DNA from: a virus
Lineage: Duplodnaviria; Heunggongvirae; Uroviricota; Caudoviricetes
Direction: 5' to 3' (one strand)
DNA length: 64,000 nt
IMG/VR virus record: IMGVR_UViG_3300003973_000001
Coordinates: 1 to 64,000 of that record
The position numbers were made by a program, and so were the translations under genes. The notes under the pieces are model-generated. The model saw nothing but the letters and a program-made list of their open reading frames with translations, made no database searches and had not been told where the DNA came from. How positions within the stretch are numbered: position 1 is the first letter of the stretch; every line of letters begins with the position of its first letter. Shown here in pieces: positions 3,511 to 62,178 of the stretch.

Positions 3511-4548
3511 TTGGTAACAGAAATTGAGAAGATGCTACTCATCGATAATAGAACCAAGAAGAGAATCGGTAGCAATATCTTCTCTCGTGCATCTACAAGA
3601 AAAGGTGGGACTAACCAAGCGTTAAGAACGCCATATTTATATATGTCTACAAAAGAACGTAAAGCACTAAATGGGGAGGTTAAGAGATACAATATGAATG
3701 ATATTATTTCTTACAAAGACTTTAAAACAAAAGATTTACAAGAGAAAAAGAGGTTGATGAACTACTGGAGAGCTAATTATAAAGTTATTGATATCAAGAA
3801 GCAGATGGGTGGAATCACTGACTACATTTTCTACAAAATATTAGACGAGCTTGATATGGATAGAACTCCTTCTGGAGGCGGAGACCATAGAGAGATATTA
3901 GAGATTTCTCCAGAAGAACTTGAACAATATAAGAAGGAGTTTATAGATTATGAAATGTTCAAGCATCTCTCTAGAGAGACCCAATACGAATTGTTTAGTG
4001 TTTACTACGCGAAGACACCTGTTGTTAGTGAACTTGTTAGACAGTGGGAAGGCGCAGAGGCAGGTTATTTATACAACGTTAAAAGTAAGTGGATGAAATT
4101 TATGAAGGCGCAGAAAGCTGAAAAAGATACCAAAGAAGCTCCTAAATCAGAAGGAACTCCAGTTATCAAGGAAGAGAATCCTGCCAAAGAAGAGATTAAG
4201 GAACTGGGACAATCTATTGTAGAGAAATCTCCAGAAGTCTTTGAGAAGAAACCAGAGCCAGTAGCAGTAGTAGAAGAGCTTTCAGAAGATACAGTAGAGA
4301 TAAACGAACCTATAGGTACGGAAGAATCGTCCGAACCAGTAGTAGAAGTTCCAGAAGAGAAGGTAGTTGAGCAAGAAATCAAAGAAGATAAAGAAGATAA
4401 GTCTTCTTCAAATAAGAACAAGTTATCATTTGAGTTAAAAGGAAATTACAGTACAAGTGCTATTATGAAGTGTCTTCAATTTACTTTGGAAACGCTAGAG
4501 CAAGAAGAATCATTAACAGATATAGAAATCAAGGTTAAGAAGAAATAG
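3511..4548 (+). CDS. hypothetical acidic protein (345 aa)
   Basis: TTG start after AGGAGAGGGTGA RBS. Sigma-A-like promoter upstream (TTGACT at 3437, extended -10 TGTGATACT). E/K/P-rich low-complexity C-terminus. Confidence 0.55.
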   Translation: MVTEIEKMLLIDNRTKKRIGSNIFSRASTRKGGTNQALRTPYLYMSTKERKALNGEVKRYNMNDIISYKDFKTKDLQEKKRLMNYWRANYKVIDIKKQMGGITDYIFYKILDELDMDRTPSGGGDHREILEISPEELEQYKKEFIDYEMFKHLSRETQYELFSVYYAKTPVVSELVRQWEGAEAGYLYNVKSKWMKFMKAQKAEKDTKEAPKSEGTPVIKEENPAKEEIKELGQSIVEKSPEVFEKKPEPVAVVEELSEDTVEINEPIGTEESSEPVVEVPEEKVVEQEIKEDKEDKSSSNKNKLSFELKGNYSTSAIMKCLQFTLETLEQEESLTDIEIKVKKK

Positions 4549-4557
4549 GGGATAGAT

Positions 4558-4986
4558 ATGGTTGAAATACTGAGGATGAATTATGAAGAAAGTGTTAGAG
4601 TACACGAAGAGAATGGAATAATGTTAGAAAAGAAAATGTGCTACAACAATGTATTTAATGTATTATCTTATCATACTGGAAAGTTTCGCAGTGGAGAATG
4701 GCGCGTTGCATACGGATATTGGACTGCAATAGATGGTATTATGGCTAGACATTGTTATATAGTTGATAAGGATAATAATGTAATTGACCCTACAGCACCA
4801 CTTTCTACTGACGAAAATGTCAAAGATAAGAAGTATCTCACATTCAAAATAATTGACGGTCTAGATTCATATCTAGACCTTATAAATGAACATGACAGAG
4901 AACCTGCTCTATATAGAGCTTTCCTAGAAGAAGAAAAGGAAGCTCACGAATATGCTATGAAGAATAACTTAATTCTTATAACATGA
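4558..4986 (+). CDS. hypothetical protein
   Basis: ORF track. Confidence 0.55.
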   Translation: MVEILRMNYEESVRVHEENGIMLEKKMCYNNVFNVLSYHTGKFRSGEWRVAYGYWTAIDGIMARHCYIVDKDNNVIDPTAPLSTDENVKDKKYLTFKIIDGLDSYLDLINEHDREPALYRAFLEEEKEAHEYAMKNNLILIT

Positions 4987-5113
4987 GTATCATCTGTAGT
5001 CATCAATGTCATGAAGCCTATTGTATAAGAATTGGCTTTGTGACATAATATGGTTACAGATATACTATATAGTATATACTGTTACCATTAGAGACACTAA
5101 GGAGGATACGAGT

Positions 5114-5281
5114 ATGAGTAGCAAAAAGAGAGTACTCAATCCAGTAGAAATTAAAAAAGATGTAGATTACATTCCACTAGGAAGAGCATTCGATTTCTGG
5201 AACAACGAGGGAGACGATATTTATGACGAAGTCTATGGGGAAGACAGTGAATCAGGGCGAGGTATGGATAGCAAACGTTAA
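5114..5281 (+). CDS. small acidic ORF (55 aa), antitoxin candidate
   Basis: TAAGGAGG RBS at 5098-5105, ATG at 5114. Overlaps the MazF-like gene in another frame. Acidic C-terminus (DDIYDEVYGEDSESG). Confidence 0.3.
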   Translation: MSSKKRVLNPVEIKKDVDYIPLGRAFDFWNNEGDDIYDEVYGEDSESGRGMDSKR

Positions 5282-5567
5282 GTTCGTCCAAGATAATCAA
5301 ACCAAAGTCAGACCAGTCTTAGCAATAAGCTTAGAAATCGATGGGGATGACGATGTTGTCGTCCTCCCTGTCACTTCTCAGAATCCAAGAAATGACTACG
5401 ATGTAGAAGTTTCGGATTACAAAGGGACTGGATTGTTAAAACAACCATCGTACATAAGAACATCAAAGCCATTAACAATCGAAAAGAGAGAGCTTAAAAG
5501 AAAAATAGGCGAAATCAAAGATGTTGACCTAGCGAACGCATTGGAAAAGTTTCGTTCATTATTTTAA
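5223..5567 (+). CDS. MazF/PemK-like (CcdB/MazF fold) toxin endoribonuclease
   Basis: GEVWIANVKF...TKVRPVLAIS...VVVLPVTSQ...YIRTSKPLTIEKREL matches the MazF/PemK pattern (GDI-WxxxF...KxRPxLVxS...xxPxTS). Start is ATG 5223 or ATG 5235. Confidence 0.6.
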   Translation: MTKSMGKTVNQGEVWIANVKFVQDNQTKVRPVLAISLEIDGDDDVVVLPVTSQNPRNDYDVEVSDYKGTGLLKQPSYIRTSKPLTIEKRELKRKIGEIKDVDLANALEKFRSLF

Positions 5568-5573
5568 GCAGAA

Positions 5574-5612
5574 AAGATGGAAGATTCATAGTCTTTCATC
5601 TTTTTATTTTTC
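5574..5612 (+). terminator. rho-independent terminator after the MazF-like gene
   Basis: GATGGAAGA-ttcata-GTCTTTCATC stem followed by TTTTTATTTTT. Confidence 0.55.
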
Positions 5613-5616
5613 TCTG

Positions 5617-5728
5617 ATATCTCAAAAGACAAGTATTCTCTACTCTATGAGATATGATACCAATTTCATAATTATACTTAATATCTCATAAATATAAGTA
5701 ATCTTAACTTTCTGAGATGTCTTACAAC
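5617..5728. repeat. four operator-like half-site repeats (TGAGATAT / ATATCTCA) in alternating orientation
   Basis: gatatctca (5621), tgagatatg (5649), atatctcat (5685), tgagatgtc (5716). Confidence 0.4.
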
Positions 5729-7040: not shown

Positions 7041-7071
7041 TGACATATATATATGGATGAAGGAGGATACT

Positions 7072-8166
7072 ATGAACGTCCCAGTCAAAGGAAACGAAAA
7101 GATTACGCAGTTATTAAACGAATGGTACATTGAAATTCGTGCCAGACGAATTGGTCAAGCTCATAGATTGAAAGAAGAGATTGATAAAAAGATTGATAGT
7201 ATAGAAAAAGACCAAACTCTACTATTGTATTACTCTCTCTTAGACTTTCGATACCAGTACATTTTAGACAATCTAGGAGTCTCTGTTAACAGCTTTGATA
7301 AGGTTGAAGAGTTTGAGATTCCAACGAACAACTTTTTAACTTATTACTACCACTTTTTTAAGGCTATTCATGCTTCTGGTATTGGTAACTACATGATAGC
7401 AAAAGAACACTTTGACAAAGCTGAATCTCTTCTTGAATTAGTTCCAGATGAGATTGAAAAAGCTGAGTTCTACTACAAATTAGGCGCTTTCCACTATGAC
7501 ATCTACGAATCACTTAACTCAGTTAAATATACTTCAAAGGCAAAGGAAATCTTTGAGCAACATGAAAATTACGAGCGAAACATAGGTTTCTGCGAGAATC
7601 TTCTTGGAACTGCTTGTACAAAGCTAAGAGAATGGGCTTTGTCAGAAGAGCATCTTATTAAGGCTATGGATATTTTCAGTAAGCATGGAGAAGAAAAATA
7701 TGTTCTAATGGTTAGACATAACTTAGGATATATGTATTCTAGTCAGAACTTATCTCCACTAGCAATTAGATATTTATCAGAGGTGACAAACCACAATCCT
7801 AGACATCACAAAGCTTTATTCTTACAAGCTAGAGAGCATTACAAATTAGATGAGCTTGATATCGCAAAAGATTTGGCTGATAGAGGATATAGTATCTGTC
7901 TTGAGTTGGGGAATATAGAGTATAAGCACCTTTTTGCAATTCTGAAATGTCTTATCTCGAATGTGTCTAGTGATGAATTGGAGAAGGTTACAATTGAAGG
8001 AATATCTTACTTTGAAGGCGAATCATTATATGAGTATATAGAAGAGAGTCAAGAGTATATGGCTGTTAAGTTCTATGAAGAAGGCAACCATACTAAATCT
8101 AGTGAATACTTCTATCTAGCTTCAAAAACGAGACAAAAAATTAAGGAAAGGGAGTCTTTAAAATGA
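7072..8166 (+). CDS. rap: Rap-family (RNPP) TPR quorum-sensing regulator/phosphatase
   Basis: About 365 aa. N-terminus ...KITQLLNEWYIEIRARRIGQAHRLKEEIDK...LLLYYSLLDFRYQYIL resembles Bacillus Rap N-termini. TPR-like repeats throughout. AAGGAGG RBS before ATG 7072. Confidence 0.8.
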   Translation: MNVPVKGNEKITQLLNEWYIEIRARRIGQAHRLKEEIDKKIDSIEKDQTLLLYYSLLDFRYQYILDNLGVSVNSFDKVEEFEIPTNNFLTYYYHFFKAIHASGIGNYMIAKEHFDKAESLLELVPDEIEKAEFYYKLGAFHYDIYESLNSVKYTSKAKEIFEQHENYERNIGFCENLLGTACTKLREWALSEEHLIKAMDIFSKHGEEKYVLMVRHNLGYMYSSQNLSPLAIRYLSEVTNHNPRHHKALFLQAREHYKLDELDIAKDLADRGYSICLELGNIEYKHLFAILKCLISNVSSDELEKVTIEGISYFEGESLYEYIEESQEYMAVKFYEEGNHTKSSEYFYLASKTRQKIKERESLK

Positions 8167-48660: not shown

Positions 48661-48682
48661 CAACATAATATTTAGTTGTCAA

Positions 48683-48753
48683 CAGGGGTTGTAGGAATCG
48701 AACCCACACTGGAGGTTTTGGAGACCTCTGTTCTACCGTTAAACTAAACCCCT
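48683..48753 (-). tRNA. tRNA-Trp (anticodon CCA)
   Basis: Hand-folded cloverleaf. Acceptor AGGGGTT/AACCCCT, anticodon loop CTCCAAA, T-loop GGTTCGATTCC. CCA not encoded. Confidence 0.75.
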
Positions 48754-48757
48754 AAGA

Positions 48758-48834
48758 TGGCATCCCATACAGGATTCGAACCTGCGAATGCTCGATAGAA
48801 AGTCGAGTGTGTTAGCCAATTTCACCAATGGGAC
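48758..48834 (-). tRNA. tRNA-Glu (anticodon TTC), CCA encoded
   Basis: Cloverleaf with anticodon stem CTCGA/TCGAG and loop CTTTCTA. Position 37 is U, which is unusual. Confidence 0.6.
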
Positions 48835-51525: not shown

Positions 51526-52584
51526 TTATTTATTTTTGATGGCGATTTTATAAAGCTCTTTAACGTAGAATTCTGCTGACTTTTTAGCGATTCGTGTAAT
51601 CGTCTCTGAAACAGTATTCTTCTTGATTCCCAGTAATTCCTCTAGTTCTTCTTGTGCATATCCCTGTCTGAATAAGTCAACAATACTTTGCTCACGAACA
51701 GTCAGAACCATTCTATCTAGCATTCTATTGTAGTCATATATAATGATTCCTAATCCATCTTCATCCATCATATCTTCTCTATTAAGCATTCTGAGAAGCT
51801 CTTTGTTATTTACAATATCAGCGAAATCAATAACATCTAACTTGTTTGCCACACCCTCATCCTTAAGTAGATTCTTAAATTCGATAGGACGCTTGATAGC
51901 TTTCTTGATAGCAATCTGATTATCTTTCGCCTCGCGAATCCAACGAGTTACATAGCCTTTGACGTTTTTGCGAATCTTTAGGAGCTTCGCACGAGCCTCT
52001 TCTTCCATTATAATAGGAAGAGATGCGTCAATTCGATTTTCAATCATCTTCACAAACGAGTCGTCTCCTGCCTTTTCGACTAAGTCTTGCAGTCTGCCAA
52101 TCTCTACTATTTCTCTAATATCCTTAGAAAGTATACTCATACCCTTGACTAGCTTCTGATTTTTATCTTCATTAGAATAGAACATATCGAATACTTCTAC
52201 TTCTGAATTGCCATCTCCACTTTCAAATGCTGAAGCTACAACGTTCTCAGACTCTTTATATTGCTTGAACTCTCTCTCACTCTTCCAAAATCGGTACTCT
52301 ACCTTTCTGTTAGTGTCGATATCTTTTGCATTAAGAAGATATGTACCTAGCATCTCTAACGTTCGGCATACAGCATCCTGCTCAGCCATCCAACCTTGTT
52401 GCGTTGGGCTTACATCGTAATATTCACCAAAGTATGCAGAGAAGAATTCATGTACATTCCCTTCTCCATCACCAATCACTTCATTTATTACCTCTAATCT
52501 ATCATGAAACTTCTCAACTGAATAATCCTGCTGTTGGAAATCCACCAATTTTTTACCTGCAATTGAACTACTGAAGTACTTCAC
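51526..52584 (-). CDS. phage-encoded sigma-70-family sigma factor
   Basis: C-terminal region-4 HTH (QSIVDLFRQGYAQEELEELLGIKKNTVSETITRIAKK). 352 aa. Confidence 0.6.
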   Translation of the reverse strand: MKYFSSSIAGKKLVDFQQQDYSVEKFHDRLEVINEVIGDGEGNVHEFFSAYFGEYYDVSPTQQGWMAEQDAVCRTLEMLGTYLLNAKDIDTNRKVEYRFWKSEREFKQYKESENVVASAFESGDGNSEVEVFDMFYSNEDKNQKLVKGMSILSKDIREIVEIGRLQDLVEKAGDDSFVKMIENRIDASLPIIMEEEARAKLLKIRKNVKGYVTRWIREAKDNQIAIKKAIKRPIEFKNLLKDEGVANKLDVIDFADIVNNKELLRMLNREDMMDEDGLGIIIYDYNRMLDRMVLTVREQSIVDLFRQGYAQEELEELLGIKKNTVSETITRIAKKSAEFYVKELYKIAIKNK

Positions 52585-53822: not shown

Positions 53823-54593
53823 CTATTCCACCTCATTAATAGGATTGTTATTTCTATCTAATACTTGGATATAATGAGTCTCATTACTATAGCCCAGTTT
53901 ATCCATAGCATCTTGAATATAGATAAAAATTGATTTTGCACTATCCCCTACTCTCCAGTAGAAGTTGTGCGTCTTAGAAATGCTCTTGCCTTTAATTTGC
54001 TTCTTGGCTGTAAATCTCATCTTTCTAAAGTCAATGACACTGAGTTCATCTTTTAATATGTAGATGTACTTTGATACGGTTTTGTCACTAATGCCTGTTT
54101 CAAACTGAATTGTTCCTTGAGAAATCCAAGACACCTTGCAACTTGATTCGCTCTCGAATATAGGAGATACGATACTAGCATATACAGAGAATACTCCAAA
54201 CTTCTTCTTCTTATCCAACGTCATGAACTTCTTGATAATATCCACATCAAACATTGTGAAGTATCCACCCTTGTTAGGCTCTACCATTTTAATAAAGTAT
54301 AGTGTAGAAGGTCTCATCTTAGATGCCTCTATCCTGCACATTTCCGCTTGGTCTTCGTATACTTCAATAAATTGATGAACTTCTAGATTAGTAACGAATC
54401 CTTTCATCTTAGATTTATTTCTACTGTCCGAATGATTCATTCCCATCTGTTTGAGAAGATTTGTAATACTAACCGTTGCAGAGCCAGTTGGATTATTGGC
54501 TCGAATGACAGCGTATGTAAATTTCTCTTCTGATGTAATTACTTCGTGTTTAATTAGGGAGTCGCTAATTTTAATAAAGTTATTATTTTTCAA
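53823..54593 (-). CDS. hypothetical protein adjacent to the iteron region (possible DNA-binding/replication function)
   Basis: ORF. Motif copy 14 nt upstream. Confidence 0.5.
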   Translation of the reverse strand: MKNNNFIKISDSLIKHEVITSEEKFTYAVIRANNPTGSATVSITNLLKQMGMNHSDSRNKSKMKGFVTNLEVHQFIEVYEDQAEMCRIEASKMRPSTLYFIKMVEPNKGGYFTMFDVDIIKKFMTLDKKKKFGVFSVYASIVSPIFESESSCKVSWISQGTIQFETGISDKTVSKYIYILKDELSVIDFRKMRFTAKKQIKGKSISKTHNFYWRVGDSAKSIFIYIQDAMDKLGYSNETHYIQVLDRNNNPINEVE

Positions 54594-54649: not shown

Positions 54650-54740
54650 GAAAGCGCCACTGCGCGCGACCACCCACTTATCTCTCTCTTCTTAATATGG
54701 TTCTTTTCTGCTTAAATGGTTCTCTTTTATTAGACCCCCA
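54650..54740. repeat. GC-rich segment (GCGCCACTGCGCGCGACCACCCAC...TTAGACCCCCA) duplicated at 54948-55016
   Basis: About 80-bp imperfect direct repeat preceding each iteron array. GC-rich, unlike the flanking AT-rich DNA. Confidence 0.5.
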
Positions 54741-54862
54741 GATTTACACCAATAGGGGGTGTGTATTTCCGTATACCTGTCGGAGATTTACACCCCCTAT
54801 TGGTGTAAAAATCCGTATACCCTCGGAGATATACACTAGCAGGGGGTGTAAATCTCCGTATA
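54741..54862. repeat. iteron array 1: at least 3 copies of a ~22-bp unit TATACGGAGATTTACACCCCCT (some as inverted pairs)
   Basis: Direct and inverted copies of GGTGTAAATCTCCGTAT / TACACCCCCTATTGGTGTA. Confidence 0.6.
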
Positions 54863-54903
54863 CTTTAACTCATGGATAAATTTTAACAGAGAATAAGAAA
54901 TAC

Positions 54904-54922
54904 TGCAATACTTTTGTTTAAA
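54904..54922 (-). promoter_or_regulatory. 19-bp motif class A heading the first iteron unit
   Basis: ctgcaatacttttgtttaa. Confidence 0.55.
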
Positions 54923-55016
54923 GGAATACGTTTCAGTAGTGGGAAAAGAGCGCCACCGCGCGACCCCACTACTATCTCTCTCTGCTTCGTCTGGTTCTCT
55001 TATTATTAGACCCCCA

Positions 55017-55094
55017 CATTTACACCCCCTAGTGGTGTAAATCTCCGTATGGTATGCGGAAATACGCACCCCTAGAGGGTGTAAATCTCCGTAT
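55017..55094. repeat. iteron array 2: 2-3 copies of the same unit
   Basis: atttacaccccctagtggtgtaaatctccgtat ... agagggtgtaaatctccgtat. Confidence 0.6.
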
Positions 55095-55165: not shown

Positions 55166-55410
55166 GAACCAGAAATTTATTGTCAGATTGAAGGGGATTC
55201 TGCTACAATGAATACAACAAACAAATCTTGAAAAAGCAAAAACGCCCTATCCTTTGTAAGTTTGGCGACCTGCAAGGATAAAGCGTTCGAAAGATAAAAC
55301 ATAGAATTCAGTTTTTTGTTACCTCAATAATATCATACATATAATATGTATGCAAAGGAATTCTATGATTTTTTCTTCCTGCTTTTTCTATAAAAATGGG
55401 GGAATTGAAT

Positions 55411-56445
55411 ATGGCTAGACCAGATGGTTATGATGTAGAAGGTTACATCCACTTTATTAAGAAGAGAGTAGATGGGACTCATTGGGTTGGCAAAGGAGAG
55501 AGTGCTAGAGAGATGCCTAATAAAGAAGCGTATGAAGTGCCTTTTGAATCTATCGAAAACTTAGACCTTAATAGGATTGGTAATGAGATTTCTTATCTTA
55601 ATAGCAATGTCTGGAATGTAGAAAGATATATGGCTTATTTCTGGAAGCAAATAATGGATGCTGATTCTATTTTCGTTTGGAAGCATCTGTGGGAATATGC
55701 AAATGAAGCAGAGAATATTGATATGTGTTATCCGAAAATGTCTGAATTGATGCAGAGATGCGGATTATCGAGACCCACCCTAATTGACAAGATAAAGAAA
55801 CTGGAAGAGAACAACTTCCTTATTCAAATACATAGATTAAACAAGAAGTCCGATAATAAAAAAGAAGACAGCCCATTATTCAAATTAAGAAGAACTATAC
55901 CTCTGCTGTCGAAAGAACAGGTTGAAAAGCTTACTCCTTTTATGAAGAAAAAGCATGACGATTACATGAATAAGTTTGCTAGTAAATCTAGTCTAGAATG
56001 GTTCTCTGCGAGCGGTAAAGAAACTGTTGATAATCTTATAGAGACTTCTGGAGACAGAATCGTATCTAGCAAGGCAAGACAGGAAATCAAGAATCTGCTA
56101 AAGAACGAGGAAGAAGAAGGTTATATAATTGTGAACCTCCCTCCTCATATGCAGGACACATTAAAAGATTCTAATTCACTACATGAGGCTCTTATGAAGA
56201 ACGGATTTAGTAAACCGTCAGTAGAATTGCTATTTGGAGACGTAATGTCTACATATGATAGTGAGACATCTACTGCACATATTATTACCAGAAAAAGTTC
56301 TCAGAAAGAGTATTATGAGAAAAATATGGAAGATAAGTATAAAGACATGCTATTCTCATCACTAATTGAAATGTACGATTCTGTTGGAGATATAAAGTAC
56401 TTCACTACAGAACAATATATAATTACAATTCTGAAGGGCAAATAA
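55411..56445 (+). CDS. winged-helix DNA-binding protein flanked by repeat arrays (replication initiator / origin-binding candidate)
   Basis: HTH-like segment PKMSELMQRCGLSRPTLIDKIKKLEENNFL. Iterons upstream, DnaA-box/palindrome array downstream. Start moved to ATG 55411 (GGGGGA RBS). Confidence 0.55.
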   Translation: MARPDGYDVEGYIHFIKKRVDGTHWVGKGESAREMPNKEAYEVPFESIENLDLNRIGNEISYLNSNVWNVERYMAYFWKQIMDADSIFVWKHLWEYANEAENIDMCYPKMSELMQRCGLSRPTLIDKIKKLEENNFLIQIHRLNKKSDNKKEDSPLFKLRRTIPLLSKEQVEKLTPFMKKKHDDYMNKFASKSSLEWFSASGKETVDNLIETSGDRIVSSKARQEIKNLLKNEEEEGYIIVNLPPHMQDTLKDSNSLHEALMKNGFSKPSVELLFGDVMSTYDSETSTAHIITRKSSQKEYYEKNMEDKYKDMLFSSLIEMYDSVGDIKYFTTEQYIITILKGK

Positions 56446-56493
56446 GCCCTTCTTTTTTTTATCTATTTTCGTTCACATTTTAGACACATTTGG

Positions 56494-56720
56494 TTATCCG
56501 CCTAGTGTAAAGAAATTTTATACTATGATTTTCGCCTAGTATAAAGAAATTTTATACTATACCATAAAGAAATTTTATACTATAGTGTAAAGAAATTTTA
56601 CACTATAGAAACACTCACTTATCCCCAGATTCTGTGGATAACCTAGTATAAAGTTTTTTTATACTATAAAACCCTAGTGTAAAATTTCTTTATAGTCCCC
56701 CTAAAGAATCTTTACACCCT
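56494..56720. repeat. array of at least 6 palindromic 24-bp repeats (TAGTRTAAAGAAATTTTATACTAT) flanked by three DnaA-box-like 9-mers
   Basis: TTATCCGCC at 56494, TTATCCCCA at 56619, perfect TTATCCACA (complement) at 56634-56642. Each repeat is itself an inverted repeat TAGTATAAA/TTTATACTA. Confidence 0.6.
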
Positions 56721-56979
56721 ATATCTTTATGATTCTATATATCTTTTTATTATTAATTAATATAAGATTCCATAAGAATCATTAGTGTAGAATTTTCAGA
56801 AAATACAAGTCTCCAGAAATACGAATCTCGAATCGGTAGACATATAGACCCTCCAGAATACTCCTCTCACCTCCATACTGACTCACTGACACGTTCTACG
56901 AACGAAGTAATCCAAATATATCTGTAAAAATAGCCCCTCCCCTACGGAGCGCTACCTATCTTAAAATTTATTATTTTTA

Positions 56980-56998
56980 TTAAACAAAAGTATTGCAA
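56980..56998 (+). promoter_or_regulatory. 19-bp motif class A (upstream of the antirepressor)
   Basis: ttaaacaaaagtattgcaa. Confidence 0.55.
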
Positions 56999-57053
56999 AG
57001 ATATAGGGTTATGGTGTAGTATGAAAACAACAACAAAACACAGGAGGTTCTAT

Positions 57054-57818
57054 ATGGACAAATTACAAGTATTCAACAATGACGAACTCGGACAGGTTCG
57101 AACGGTTACTATCGGAGAGGAAGCTTGGTTCGTAGCGAAAGATGTTTGCGATGTCTTATCAATCGGCAATATTACAAAAACGATTTCGCGACTGGATGAA
57201 GATGAGTTTACTACTAGTAAAGTCACCGATTCTACAGGAAGAAACCAAGATACATTCGTTGTAAACGAAAGTGGTCTTTACTCTATTATTATGACTAGTC
57301 GTAAACCGCAGGCAAAAGTATTTAAGAAGTGGGTTACATCAGAAGTGTTGCCGATGATTCGCAAAACTGGCGGTTACGTAAATAACGATGAGATATTCGT
57401 TAATACATATCTGGCTCATGCGGATGAAATGACAAAGACATTATTTAAATCAACATTAGAAACGGTGCGTAAGCAAAACGAAAAGATTGCTGTACTAGAA
57501 CCGAAAGCCGAATATCACGACAATGTACTTGATAGCAAAAACTCATTTACAATCACAGAGATTGCTAATGACTTGGGAATGACAGCTCGTAAATTGAACT
57601 CCCTACTACACCAATTAGGAGTGCAGAGAAAAGTTGGGGCAACATGGGTGTTGTACGCGGAACATCAGAATAAAGGCTACATCGATACAAAGACTTATGT
57701 ATATGATGGCGGTAACGAAGGATTCCAAACAGCCATGCATACACGATGGACTCAGAAAGGTCGCAAGTTCATTATTGATTTAATGACTGAGATGGGTCTT
57801 CAAAAAACATTTTACTAA
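57054..57818 (+). CDS. antirepressor (Bro-N N-terminal domain + KilA-C/ANT C-terminal domain)
   Basis: Bro-N-like LQVFNNDELGQVRTV...WFVAKDVCDVL...ESGLYSIIM...KVFKKWVTSEVLP. C-terminal TITEIANDLGMTARKLNSLL. AGGAGG RBS before ATG 57054. Confidence 0.75.
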   Translation: MDKLQVFNNDELGQVRTVTIGEEAWFVAKDVCDVLSIGNITKTISRLDEDEFTTSKVTDSTGRNQDTFVVNESGLYSIIMTSRKPQAKVFKKWVTSEVLPMIRKTGGYVNNDEIFVNTYLAHADEMTKTLFKSTLETVRKQNEKIAVLEPKAEYHDNVLDSKNSFTITEIANDLGMTARKLNSLLHQLGVQRKVGATWVLYAEHQNKGYIDTKTYVYDGGNEGFQTAMHTRWTQKGRKFIIDLMTEMGLQKTFY

Positions 57819-57885: not shown

Positions 57886-59850
57886 ATGAAATTAACAACA
57901 GAACAACAATTGGCAGTAGATACTATTGACGGAAACGTTTGTACAATCGCGAGTGCAGGCTCTGGAAAAACTAGCGCCTTCACTACTCGTATTGCGAACA
58001 TGGTAAACAATCACTATATCAATCCTACATGTATTCTAGGAATCACGTTTACGAAGAAGGCATCCGAGGAAATGCAGAAGCGACTTGCCAAGCTTATTGG
58101 TAAGGAAACAGCAAAGAAGGTCGTGCTTAGTACATTCCACAGCATCGCTTACCGATTACTAAAGGTTTTAGATTCAGAGTTTGATAAATTACAAATTGCC
58201 CCAGATTGGTGGAAGATGTCGCGCCTTAACGACTTGTGTAAGCCTCGCGATGAGCGAAACCATTTAGGTATGAATCTAGGAATCAAGGCAGGCGAACTTG
58301 CCCAGTTTATTTCTTACCAGAAAGCGAATATGGTGAAGCCGACTGACAATCTCATTATCAATGAGCAAGTCGAATTTGTAGACGGAGTGTCAGAACCACT
58401 TCTCAGAGAGGCATACGCCACGTATGAGCGACTTAAAACAGAATCTAGACAAGTAGACTTCGATGACATGTTATTGCGATTCTACGAGAAACTGAGAGAC
58501 GACAGCGTATTCCGTTCTCGCATTGCTAAACAGTATCAGTACATCATGATAGACGAATACCAAGATACTTCAACTATCGTGCTTGAAATTGTTAAGCTTA
58601 TCAACTCTCGAAACGTATTCGTAGTTGGCGATTTCCGCCAATCCATCTATGCATTCATCAATGCGAATGTTGAGAATATCCTTAACTTCAAAGATGAATT
58701 TGAGAATGTTAAGCTAATTGAATTGAACAAAAATTTCCGCTCAACGCAGAATATTGTTCACCTATCAAACAAAATTATTGAAAACAGTTCGATTGAAAAA
58801 TACAAGCAATTCAAGCCATCCGAGAGTGTTGGCGAAGTTGGAGATAAAGTTAAGTTTTCTCTATACCAAGACGAAGGAAAACAGATTCTTGGAATCGCTA
58901 ATCAGATTCAAGATTTAGTAGATGGCGGTATGCCATATAAGGAGATTGCTATTCTAGTTCGCGCAAATGCGGATACAGCAATCATTGAGGAAGTACTGGC
59001 AGATAAGGATATTCCTTACGATGTATCCAAATCCCTATCCTTCTTCGACAGAAAGGAAATCTTAGATTTACTAAGCTACGGAAGACTTGTAGTAGATAGC
59101 GAAGACGACAGCAGTTTCCGCAGAATCATCAATTCACCGAATCGATATTTAGGAAAGCAGTTTGTCGAGGAACTGGAGCGATTTGCAGGTTCGCACGATA
59201 TGAACTTAATGCAGGCGCTACGCGTAACTCCTCAGAATGGTGAGTGGAAATTCAAGCGAGGAATCGATAACTTCACTAAGATTATTAGCGATTTGCACTA
59301 TCAATCTAATTCTAGTACGAATGCAGGGCGATTCCTTCGCAATGTAATTAAAGCGACTCGCTACATTGAGTTTGTGAATGAGACGACTCCTAACGCATCT
59401 TCTATTGATGAGAAATTGGAATCTATCGAAAAGCTTTGCACTATGGCTTCTAAATTCCCTAATATCAAAGCGTTCTTGGCTCACGTTTCTACCATTAAAG
59501 ACAAACAAGCGAAGTCTAAAGGTAAAGATGCGGTGCAGGTAATGACTAGCCATGCATCTAAAGGATTGGAATTTGACGCGGTATTCGTTCCGAATGCTAA
59601 TGAAGGGCTTATTCCTCACAAGATGAATCCAGACGAGGAAGAAGAGCGAAGACTGTTTTACGTATCATGTTCTCGCCCTCGTAAGCACCTATATATCAGT
59701 TGGTTCTTTTACGATGCCGAAGCCATGCTTCAAAATGAGAGTATCTTCGTACAGGAATTGCTTGGAGAAGATACGATTCTAGAAATGAAGAAAGACCTCT
59801 TCCGAGGCAAATCGGAGACCCATGTGTGGTATCCTTCAAAAACTAGCTAA
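57886..59850 (+). CDS. UvrD/PcrA-like superfamily-1 DNA helicase
   Basis: Walker A AGSGKT. Motif II DEYQD. 654 aa. Confidence 0.8.
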   Translation: MKLTTEQQLAVDTIDGNVCTIASAGSGKTSAFTTRIANMVNNHYINPTCILGITFTKKASEEMQKRLAKLIGKETAKKVVLSTFHSIAYRLLKVLDSEFDKLQIAPDWWKMSRLNDLCKPRDERNHLGMNLGIKAGELAQFISYQKANMVKPTDNLIINEQVEFVDGVSEPLLREAYATYERLKTESRQVDFDDMLLRFYEKLRDDSVFRSRIAKQYQYIMIDEYQDTSTIVLEIVKLINSRNVFVVGDFRQSIYAFINANVENILNFKDEFENVKLIELNKNFRSTQNIVHLSNKIIENSSIEKYKQFKPSESVGEVGDKVKFSLYQDEGKQILGIANQIQDLVDGGMPYKEIAILVRANADTAIIEEVLADKDIPYDVSKSLSFFDRKEILDLLSYGRLVVDSEDDSSFRRIINSPNRYLGKQFVEELERFAGSHDMNLMQALRVTPQNGEWKFKRGIDNFTKIISDLHYQSNSSTNAGRFLRNVIKATRYIEFVNETTPNASSIDEKLESIEKLCTMASKFPNIKAFLAHVSTIKDKQAKSKGKDAVQVMTSHASKGLEFDAVFVPNANEGLIPHKMNPDEEEERRLFYVSCSRPRKHLYISWFFYDAEAMLQNESIFVQELLGEDTILEMKKDLFRGKSETHVWYPSKTS

Positions 59851-60520: not shown

Positions 60521-60711
60521 AAATAGTCTTCTTTTTTATTTTGTACCACTTTTAGACCAATAATTGGTACATAGGGTGGTCAATCTATTATTTTTTCTAT
60601 ATTTTTTTCATCTATCAAACTCTTCAGTACCAAGGCTTGGCACTGAGGGTGGTCTAATTTCTGTCTTTCGGGTATTGCAAAGTAGAGAAATGCGTGATTT
60701 AATATAGACAA
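60521..60711. repeat. repeat sites upstream of the ParM-like gene: two palindromes each followed by AGGGTGGTC(A/T)AAT
   Basis: GACCAATAATTGGTACATAGGGTGGTCAATC and ACCAAGGCTTGGCACTGAGGGTGGTCTAATTTC. Confidence 0.45.
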
Positions 60712-60738
60712 ATGGTAAATGAAGGAGAGATTGGCAAA

Positions 60739-61878
60739 ATGGTCAAGAAAACTGCGTTAAAAGTTACTATGAAATACGATAGAGTTATTGGAATCGACTT
60801 AGGTAACGGTCTTGTAAAGATTAGAAGTGTTTACAAAAGCGGTGAATTATATGAACTGACTCTTCCAAGCGCATTCGGAAAACTGATTGATGTAGGGAAC
60901 AGTGTTGGGGGAGAAGAGCTAGATTTAGATACATATAGAATTAATGGCATCGATTATGTATGGGGAGAAGATATCACTAGACTTCGAGACAAGATGAAGC
61001 CTTGCTACGGTCATCAAGGAAGATATGAATCTGAAGCATATAAGATTATGGCTCAAATCGCTATGTCTAGAGTTGTAAAGGATTTAGGAATCGATGCAAC
61101 GGAAAAGGTTTTAGTAGTAACTGGAGTTCCTTCTATTGAAACTGATACAGAGTGCGAGACTGATATAGCGAATGCTTTCTATGGAGAAAGCTCTGGATTC
61201 TTCGAAACAGTAGTAAATGGACAAGAGTACAGCTACAGATTAGCTCACGTACAGGTTACAGCACAGGCTCTGGCAACTGTAATTGGAAGATATATAGATG
61301 AGGTTGGAAGAGTATTAAATTCGGATTATGAGAAGATTAAGGTAGCTGTAGTTGATATCGGTGCAGGCACAACGGATTTAGATGCTGTATTTGAGCTTCG
61401 TAGACAATCGAACTACCATAGTATCCAACGAGGATTCAGAGATGTTTATGAGGATATCAGAACGTATATTAGAAAGTATCATCCTTCTCATGTTGTTACG
61501 GACTACGATATCTTAGAAATCATCGAAGAAGTAGGGGATATGAGGAAGAGGCAGGAACTTGAAGCTTCTATTAGCAAGAAGAAGAAAGAGGATATTCGAT
61601 ATGAATACACTCCTTCAAAGAGAAGCGCACCAGTAGATTTCACTGATGTATTCCTTAATTCATTATATGAGCTTGCAATGGATATTCAGCAGGCTATACT
61701 TGATAAGTGGAAGAATACACTTGAATTTGATGAAATATTAATCGTTGGAGGAAGCGCAGAACACTTCTCTGACATGATGTTAAAGATTGTTAAGGATGCA
61801 ATTATCCCAGAGAACAATGGAGATAGTAACGTAGAGGGTTATTACAGATTGGGCGTAAGTATCGCACTGGCAGGATAA
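60739..61878 (+). CDS. ParM/StbA-like actin-fold partition ATPase
   Basis: N-terminal phosphate-1 motif VIGIDLGNGLVKI. DIGAGTTD phosphate-2 motif. GAAGGAGAG RBS then ATG 60739. Confidence 0.7.
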   Translation: MVKKTALKVTMKYDRVIGIDLGNGLVKIRSVYKSGELYELTLPSAFGKLIDVGNSVGGEELDLDTYRINGIDYVWGEDITRLRDKMKPCYGHQGRYESEAYKIMAQIAMSRVVKDLGIDATEKVLVVTGVPSIETDTECETDIANAFYGESSGFFETVVNGQEYSYRLAHVQVTAQALATVIGRYIDEVGRVLNSDYEKIKVAVVDIGAGTTDLDAVFELRRQSNYHSIQRGFRDVYEDIRTYIRKYHPSHVVTDYDILEIIEEVGDMRKRQELEASISKKKKEDIRYEYTPSKRSAPVDFTDVFLNSLYELAMDIQQAILDKWKNTLEFDEILIVGGSAEHFSDMMLKIVKDAIIPENNGDSNVEGYYRLGVSIALAG

Positions 61879-61890
61879 GGAGTGTAAAGA

Positions 61891-62178
61891 ATGTCTATAT
61901 ATAAGCTACCATTAGATGATGATGTTGATGTGGATATACAGAAGTGGATGGACAAGATACCTAGAAACAAGAAGGCTGAAGTTATACGACACGCTATAAG
62001 GCTGTATAAGAGCCAACTGAAAGAAGGGGAATTCTTCTATTATCCTACTGGAGAAGGCGTGTATAAGGTCAATAATACGCAAGAGGAAGTTATTGAAGAG
62101 GAAGAGATAGAAGAAGAGAGACCGATGGCTAATCCTGCATTCTTAGCTAGTATGCACAAGGCGAAGGGTGATAAATAA
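61891..62178 (+). CDS. ParR-like ribbon-helix-helix adaptor (putative)
   Basis: 95 aa. KKAEVIRHAIRLY RHH-like N-terminus, acidic C-terminus. Immediately downstream of the ParM-like gene. Confidence 0.45.
   Translation: MSIYKLPLDDDVDVDIQKWMDKIPRNKKAEVIRHAIRLYKSQLKEGEFFYYPTGEGVYKVNNTQEEVIEEEEIEEERPMANPAFLASMHKAKGDK

Follow-up and report, generated by a model that had tools for sequence, protein, structure and literature searches.

The window analysed here is the whole stretch of 64,000 nucleotides covering positions 1 to 64,000 of the IMG/VR virus record IMGVR_UViG_3300003973_000001, and all coordinates refer to it. It is part of a large siphovirus-like genome, with structural and lysis genes on the minus strand at about 9–48 kb and early genes on the plus strand from 55.4 kb. 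At the start of the latter lies rep, which encodes a predicted replication initiator. Behind rep follow a transcription terminator, an array of palindromic repeats with two DnaA boxes at its centre, and an AT-rich stretch (Table 1). This locus, its counterparts in related elements and its probable role as a replication origin are the subject of the present analysis.

Table 1. Positions of the features of the rep locus and of plasmid-type genes in the window; functions are predicted.
Feature	Position	Strand	Sequence	Remarks
PemK/MazF-type toxin gene	5223–5567
Rap-family gene	7057–8166			RapH_N and TPR
Divergent winged-helix protein	53823–54593	−		256 residues; homologues 219–261 residues
Putative antisense RNA (countertranscript) to rep leader	55236–55320	−		About 85 nt; two stem-loops
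rep	55411–56445	+		344 residues from the ATG
rep terminator	56433–56460	+	GAAGGGC-loop-GCCCTTC, then T8	Kept in all aligned loci
22-nt element	56470–56491		CGTTCACATTTTAGACACATTT	Between terminator and P1
Rejected DnaA box	56494–56502	+	TTATCCGCC	Two mismatches to consensus; not conserved
P1	56503–56525		TAGTGTAAAGAAATTTTATACTA	Proposed Rep dimer site
P2	56537–56559		TAGTATAAAGAAATTTTATACTA	Repeat scan and alignment
P3	56560–56582		TACCATAAAGAAATTTTATACTA	Left arm degenerate
P4	56583–56605		TAGTGTAAAGAAATTTTACACTA	Repeat scan and alignment
Left DnaA box	56619–56627	+	TTATCCCCA	One mismatch
Right DnaA box	56633–56641	−	TTATCCACA	Perfect; plus strand reads TGTGGATAA
P5	56644–56666		TAGTATAAAGTTTTTTTATACTA	Repeat scan and alignment
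P6	56675–56697		TAGTGTAAAATTTCTTTATAGTC	Central spacer inverted; two mismatches in right arm
P7	56697–56719		CCCCCTAAAGAATCTTTACACCC	Well kept in right arm only; seventh copy in all aligned loci
Candidate DNA-unwinding element	56720–56790			AT-rich; GC 0.14–0.20
Junction motif	56722–56738		TCTTTATGATTCTA	Starts the AT-rich stretch, right after the last palindrome; conserved in the family
Alp7A-like actin partition ATPase gene	60712–61878			Followed by a 95-residue open reading frame (region 60712–62178)

The Rep protein

The open reading frame (ORF) list opens this frame at 55396; the start of rep is placed at the ATG at 55411 because it matches the MARP... start of the homologues. Rep matches Pfam HTH_36 and phrog_26369, "replication initiation protein" (E 1e-26), the same PHROG that RepA of plasmid pBS72 matches (7e-54). 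Its match to the PHROG family "replication initiation O-like" is weak (E 1.6e-5). Comparison with pBS72 RepA by tblastn gives 27.9% identity for residues 51–198 (E 1e-12), and alignment over the full length gives 25%. No Rep_3 domain was found in Rep, and a profile search of PDB sequences with Rep returned nothing useful. By these matches Rep is a winged-helix member of a replication-initiator family.

The AlphaFold2 model of Rep is confident (pLDDT 84.8). It consists of a beta-hairpin and winged helix-turn-helix (about residues 17–165), a helical linker, and a C-terminal domain (residues 272–349) that a fold search assigns to the DnaA domain I fold, as in the pBS72 type of initiator. The C-terminal segment of pBS72 RepA matches Pfam DnaA_N (3.7e-13). 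The terminator at the end of rep insulates the array against rep transcription.

The palindromic repeats

The repeat unit following rep is a 23-bp palindrome, TAGTRTAAA-N5-TTTAYACTA, with a 9-5-9 dyad, and the array extends from 56503 to 56719. With up to three mismatches allowed, the unit is matched six times against 0.37 expected; none of 100 shuffles reached six, and no match was found in the rest of the 64-kb window. Of 12 perfect half-sites in the whole window, all but one fall inside the array, and Tandem Repeats Finder reports a period of 23 at 56537–56608. The repeats are thus non-random. In total the array holds six good palindromes and one degenerate copy, P7, which was recognised only through alignment with relatives that conserve a seventh copy at this place. 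The start-to-start spacings from P1 to P7 are 34, 23, 23, 61, 31 and 22 bp, four palindromes lying to the left of the centre and three to the right.

A previous sequence-only reading of this stretch had described at least six internally inverted repeats downstream of the winged-helix gene, in a non-coding and AT-rich region. Both statements hold, with a seventh copy added and the unit being 23 bp: there is no ORF of 40 or more residues between 56446 and 57020, and the GC content of the array stretch is 0.16–0.38.

Comparison of the rep loci

Fourteen loci with Rep homologues, at 92 to 25% identity, were compared by scanning the region after the rep stop codon. They include Tyrovirus PJN02, a 148-kb plasmid of B. 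velezensis, IMG/VR contigs and pBS72, and were gathered by protein look-ups and from plasmid and phage collections. A scan of genome contigs with the Rep alignment gave no relatives, and a megablast search of plasmids with 20 kb of the window gave no close relative.

A lineage-specific array of dyad repeats follows rep in every one of the 14 loci, and 11 of them align column for column with the window. In all of them the terminator is followed by four palindromes, then by two inverted DnaA boxes separated by 5–6 bp, three further palindromes, TCTTTATGATTCTA and finally the AT-rich stretch, and the leading spacings of 34, 23 and 23 bp are identical in the window and PJN02. Variations on this order were also seen. 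The parts are the same in L009, where the palindromes are more heterogeneous and a third, perfect box is added; in L013 a 547-residue gene (3570–5213) is inserted between rep and the array (5390–5640); and pBS72 has a single box amid its repeats. More distant RepA-type plasmids (79 kb from B. subtilis and 347 kb from Cytobacillus) likewise carry repeats with a central perfect DnaA box. Besides the window, 6 of the 11 aligned loci carry the 22-nt element CGTTCACATTTTAGACACATTT; in the five without it, either P1 is closer to the terminator or extra sequence precedes the terminator.

The half-site of the palindromes differs between lineages, being TAGTRTAAA, TAGTGTTCAA, TAGGGTTTAA, TAGGTTTCAA, TAGGGTAAA, TAGTATTAA or AGGCTTAAA, and the DnaA box is unchanged. 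The repeats co-vary with Rep and the box stays constant. The start of the predicted recognition helix in Rep reads S/T-R-P-T-L with TAGTRTAAA or TAGTATTAA half-sites, S-K-G/A-T-L with half-sites of the ..GTT(C/T)AA type, and S-R-G-S-L with TAGGTTTCAA. This suggests that the recognition helix tracks the half-site.

The comparison between the window and L004, an IMG/VR contig with TAGTGTTCAA sites, locates the exchange of specificity. Outside 55290–56730 the two are mostly 80–100% identical, typically about 90%; inside this interval the identity falls to 44–88%, mostly 50–75%. The exchanged interval comprises the rep promoter, rep and the palindrome array only, and ends at the last palindrome. 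Since Rep is the sole protein encoded in the exchanged cassette, it is the predicted cognate protein of the palindromes, which would be the binding sites of this initiator. Judged by these alignments, rep and its sites form one exchangeable specificity cassette in a family of Bacillus phage-plasmids.

The genes beyond the array were also compared. In most relatives (L002, L008–L012 and L014) a UvrD/PcrA-like helicase gene, at 57886–59850 in the window, comes after rep and the array. The window has an antirepressor gene (57021–57818) inserted ahead of the helicase gene. The order of rep, origin and helicase gene is conserved.

The DnaA boxes

Between P4 and P5 two DnaA boxes form an inverted 9-5-9 dyad, TTATCCCCA-GATTC-TGTGGATAA (56619–56641). 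The right box is the sole perfect TTATCCACA in the window, and the left-box position reads TTATCCACA in L004, L008 and L010. Among the named segments the right box has the highest mean column conservation in the alignment of 12 loci (0.98), followed by the left box (0.83) and the palindromes (0.68–0.78), and the spacer immediately preceding the boxes scores 0.31. When the 9-mers in the 390 bp after rep were counted without alignment, TTATCCACA proved to be shared by more loci than any other, namely by 12 of 13 non-redundant ones. The boxes, like the repeats, are non-random in this respect. Because the pair is kept and the Rep half-sites vary, it is under selection independent of Rep specificity. 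Its conservation has the pattern expected of a host-factor site, and its sequence is that of the DnaA consensus. A scan of ORFs near the array (51.5–62 kb), those elsewhere not all having been included, gave no match to the DnaA/DnaN families.

Three boxes around the array had been claimed from the sequence. The two of the central dyad are conserved, the perfect one on the complementary strand lying at 56633–56641, one base off the 56634–56642 first given. The third, TTATCCGCC at 56494, is judged a chance near-match: in L007, the relative with 92% identity, its place is taken by AACTTCGCGCC. It had also been proposed that boxes should exceed the background. At one mismatch or fewer the whole window contains 19 against 18.8 expected, which is the background level, so that the claim would fail by that criterion, and the locus lacks the cluster of many enriched boxes of an oriC-like origin. 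We consider the window-wide count to be the wrong test, as the signal consists of local pairing and conservation.

The AT-rich stretch

The lowest GC content within 56400–57050, 0.14, is found at 56725–56774, directly beside P7. Within the stretch of 56720–56790, as read from its sequence, lie the direct repeats TATATCTTTAT and TATATCTTTTTAT, and the inverted repeat ATGATTCT / AGAATCAT flanks it; the stretch is likely to be the unwinding element. The palindromes themselves had earlier been considered as an unwinding element; they are instead assigned as initiator sites, with unwinding placed in the adjoining stretch. The junction motif TCTTTATGATTCTA is conserved across lineages with differing Rep sites and may be bound by a host factor or mark where unwinding starts. 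A CodY-box-like sequence, AATTTTCAGAAAATA, next to this stretch (56791–56805) agrees with the consensus at 14 of 15 positions and is not significant, one being found against 1.04 expected at two or fewer mismatches.

The upstream repeats and the divergent winged-helix protein

A second array lies upstream of rep at 54737–55091. It is made of nine half-sites GGTGTAAATCTCCG, which form palindromes of 35–41 nt and are local to that region. These palindromes are inside a 290-bp tandem duplication that also repeats a promoter element. Some array with a spacing of about 42 bp occurs at the upstream position in every lineage.

The upstream array had been proposed to make a bipartite origin together with the array after rep. 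The proposal fails on two counts. In L004 the upstream repeats are 96–100% identical to those of the window, though Rep and the downstream palindromes have been replaced; L012 has the Rep half-site of the window, yet its upstream repeats are unrelated. Therefore the upstream repeats are not Rep sites, and the likeness of the upstream half-site GGTGTAAA to the Rep half-site TAGTGTAAA is judged to be coincidental.

The repeats instead follow the divergent winged-helix protein encoded to their left. The relationships of this protein and of Rep are decoupled: the window shares 59% identity with L014 in the upstream protein and 38% in Rep, and 27% and 61%, respectively, with L008. The upstream proteins of L008 and L011 are each other's closest relatives in this comparison (46%), and these two loci have a common upstream half-site, AAAAAGTGTC. 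The protein contains an HTH_36-like motif (hhalign probability 78%). Its structure model is of low confidence (pLDDT 64) and shows a winged-helix N-terminal domain with generic winged-helix fold matches. It may act in regulation or as a second initiator.

The antisense RNA candidate

The putative antisense RNA opposite the rep leader has a large hairpin at 55243–55290, with the loop GGUCGCCAAAC, then a U-run, and a promoter-like site is present on the minus strand at 55356–55327. The minus-strand RNA folds with −22.4 kcal/mol and a z score of −3.07, against −1.69 for the plus strand. In 12 of 15 loci the hairpin precedes rep by 149–169 nt, and its loop GGUCGCCAAAC is nearly invariant among loci. 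Compensatory changes affect 5 of the 18 predicted pairs, a covariation that supports the structure, and G-U pairs are found on the minus strand only. No such hairpin was found upstream of pBS72 repA, within the only 125 nt that could be searched. The Rfam CopA-like family (RF00042) is matched with 28.3 bits (E 0.027), which is below its gathering score of 60.

The candidate resembles the CopA/Inc antisense RNAs of IncFII R1, IncB and IncI-alpha in being a short countertranscript with a long hairpin, CGCCAA in the loop and a position opposite the rep leader. It differs from them in its sub-threshold Rfam score (28 against 60 bits) and its Firmicute host. These features point to antisense control of rep, a typical copy-number device of plasmids.

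Some further details of this region were noted. A mini-ORF of 7 codons (55209–55232) is located just upstream of the hairpin. In L007 the upper part of the hairpin with its loop is inverted (2833–2879 of that locus), so that GTCGGCAAAC is on the rep-sense strand. A Rep site in the rep promoter was considered and rejected, the resemblance being weak and missing from L004.

Proposed initiation of replication at the array

The locus has the components of an iteron origin. Seven repeated initiator sites, where at least three would be expected, adjoin rep and co-vary with the cognate Rep, at least one DnaA box is present, and an AT-rich element, judged by composition only, is adjacent. It departs from the classical Rep_3 type in that every unit is a 9-5-9 palindrome and not an asymmetric direct repeat. 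In our judgement the array is most probably the vegetative origin, of the plasmid (theta) and iteron type, by which a phage-plasmid of the Bacillus cereus group is maintained as a plasmid prophage; it would be driven by the Rep whose gene lies immediately upstream. Possibly the same origin is also used for lytic replication.

Initiation at such an origin would begin with Rep dimers binding the seven 23-bp dyad sites through their winged-helix domains to build an initiator–DNA complex. Host DnaA would occupy the central inverted box pair, where contact with the C-terminal domain of Rep may help, and the initiator complex would melt the adjoining AT-rich stretch. The DnaA domain I-like domain of Rep may recruit DnaD, DnaB, DnaI and the DnaC helicase, as proposed for pBS72 RepA, and host PolC and DnaE would then replicate the element. 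The antisense RNA would set the supply of Rep through the rep leader.

Several points weigh against parts of this proposal. DnaA_N was not detected in the Rep of the window by sequence HMM, the likeness being one of fold and of alignment with pBS72 RepA only. There are only two DnaA boxes, and the window as a whole has no enrichment of boxes. L015 has two boxes with one mismatch each, and the boxes of L013 are degenerate (TTTTCCACA and TGTTAATAA), one with one mismatch and the other with two; a perfect box is therefore not indispensable. The sole basis for the unwinding element is base composition, and the pairing of recognition helix and half-site comes from only about eight lineages.

The locus had first been read as a host-DnaA-dependent origin. 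That it is origin-like and tied to the winged-helix gene agrees with our results; the dependence on DnaA is less certain, as there are only two boxes and the accounts of pBS72 conflict. Under strict dependence DnaA at the boxes would be the essential factor for unwinding or helicase recruitment, with Rep merely assisting. This is conceivable, though we think it rather unlikely. It would explain why 12 of 13 loci retain one or more perfect copies of TTATCCACA amid diverging surroundings, and pNDH33, a pBS72 derivative, is described as thought to be DnaA-dependent (PMC5615212). Against this, two boxes are not a cluster, L013 and L015 manage with degenerate boxes, and the DnaA domain I-like module of Rep could itself replace the recruiting role of DnaA.

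Titok and colleagues reportedly found in 2006 that pBS72 needs RepA, the iteron origin, DnaB, DnaC, DnaD, DnaG, DnaI, PolC and DnaE. DnaA, PriA, PcrA and Pol I are said not to have been required, which speaks against strict dependence and also against the part given to DnaA in the proposal above. The DnaA-like domain of RepA was reportedly proposed to deliver the helicase. The description of the pBS72-derived replicon as DnaA-dependent (PMC5615212) is contrary to this reported dispensability.

It is improbable that the palindromes are purely regulatory, acting in titration, handcuffing, incompatibility or copy control, and that initiation takes place elsewhere, for instance at the upstream palindromes spaced 42 bp apart with the divergent protein as second initiator. 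About 1.5 kb to the left there is indeed another lineage-specific array of palindromes, with another HTH_36-like protein, and the cumulative GC-skew minimum is near 54–55 kb. However, the skew simply follows the switch in gene orientation, and the array after rep has the full set of an origin, that is initiator sites, DnaA boxes and an adjoining stretch of GC 0.14. The array of pBS72 has the same position and layout, and there RepA and the iteron origin are reportedly required.

We regard it as very unlikely that the pair of DnaA boxes is a chance or relict sequence without function, or that it is bound by a dimeric protein other than DnaA. The window-wide count at background would agree with the former, and the 9-5-9 geometry of the pair, which equals that of the Rep sites, with the latter. 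Yet the pair includes the most conserved named segment across elements of the B. cereus group, the B. subtilis group and Cytobacillus, with the exact universal DnaA consensus, and an element-encoded binding protein would be expected to make it vary by lineage. The array can hardly be a partition centromere or an operator array of the downstream antirepressor gene, even though palindromic arrays are typical of both and the element carries a partition system: the Alp7A-like operon is 4 kb away with upstream repeats of its own (60542–60654), the antirepressor gene is absent after the array in most relatives whereas the array always follows rep, the array is exchanged with rep only, and neither role explains the DnaA boxes.

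Related origins

The Rep-driven origin proposed here is closest to that of pBS72, a theta plasmid of Bacillus subtilis on whose replicon the pHT/pNDH vectors are based. The two Rep proteins are homologous over their full length (25–28% identity), belong to the same PHROG and have a winged helix followed by a DnaA domain I-like C-terminus. In both the origin is directly downstream of rep and has several AT-rich dyad repeats flanked by G/C, with a perfect TTATCCACA at the array centre, and a sister plasmid of pBS72 is similar. Unlike the window, pBS72 has a single box without an inverted pair, its repeats are of the ATTAAAATTTAAT type, and it is on a conjugative plasmid of the pLS20 family, not on a phage.

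The lambda origin also has dyad sites bound by dimers in a short array with an adjoining AT-rich region, and the O protein, a winged-helix initiator like Rep, recruits the helicase through its other end. It differs from the window in being inside the O gene, in having four sites and no known DnaA boxes, and in obtaining the helicase via lambda P. In the origins of pSC101, P1 (oriR), F (oriS), RK2 (oriV) and R6K, too, Rep sites occur together with DnaA box(es) and an AT-rich element, and the plasmid initiator cooperates with DnaA. P1 is itself a phage-plasmid, and RK2 oriV has inverted pairs of DnaA boxes. These iteron plasmids of Gram-negative bacteria differ in using Rep_3-type monomers on asymmetric direct repeats, that is another protein family in another host phylum.

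An origin assembled from initiator sites, DnaA box(es) and an AT-rich element is of a classical kind, and the Rep family already has a characterised member in pBS72. Less ordinary are the palindromic sites, which are lambda-like, the DnaA dyad as the best-conserved sequence in an origin with an initiator that mimics DnaA domain I, and the behaviour of rep and its sites as one exchangeable unit.

A probable phage-plasmid

The close homologues of Rep are encoded on contigs of 126–165 kb from the B. cereus and B. subtilis groups. Some of the records, several in number, describe circular plasmids (130–165 kb), and other homologues are on the Tyroviruses PJN02 and FADO. The paper on the Tyroviruses inferred a plasmid prophage stage and listed a "replication initiator", without analysis of the origin (PMC9703825). 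Because of its plasmid-maintenance genes (Table 1), the antisense RNA candidate, the plasmid-borne relatives of Rep and the plasmid prophage stage inferred for the Tyroviruses, the element is best described as a phage-plasmid. The toxin and Rap genes represent plasmid-addiction and quorum-type functions on a phage genome. Upstream of the Alp7A-like gene, within 60542–60654, two copies of a repeat, each GTACCAANNNTTGGNAC followed by GGGTGGTC, lie 73 bp apart and are a candidate centromere or operator.

Other sequences of the genome deserve mention. The 18-mer TTAAACAAAAGTATTGCA occurs 24 times against 0.18 expected, always along the local gene direction, its sites including 850, 10312, 34486, 40576, 52873, 54904, 56980 and 57815. 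It probably serves as a promoter element throughout the phage. On the minus strand a gene resembling those of sigma factors (phrog_5767, E 1.4e-36) occupies 51526–52584. Short matches of 92–96% to Bacillus and Listeria at about 48680–48760, which are featureless in those records, may mark a conserved RNA gene, for example a tRNA.

Implications

The question arises why the DnaA box is best conserved when the only tested relative reportedly needs no DnaA. One answer, which we offer as a speculation of low probability, is that the box dyad is a docking point where host DnaA and Rep form a mixed initiator complex through contacts between their domains I. If true, the replication of the plasmid prophage would be coupled to the DnaA cycle of the host, and the element could become open to proteins that regulate DnaA domain I, SirA in sporulation being one example. 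It could also explain the conservation of the boxes despite the reported dispensability of DnaA in pBS72.

The analysis provides a replicon map, with a predicted initiator, seven sites, two boxes, an unwinding candidate and putative antisense control, for a family of large (about 126–165 kb) Bacillus phage-plasmids, which includes relatives of the Tyroviruses infecting B. anthracis, B. cereus and B. subtilis. These phages are connected by it with the replicon of pBS72, on which expression vectors for B. subtilis are built, and the cassette exchange of rep together with its sites predicts that the members of the family would fall into incompatibility groups.

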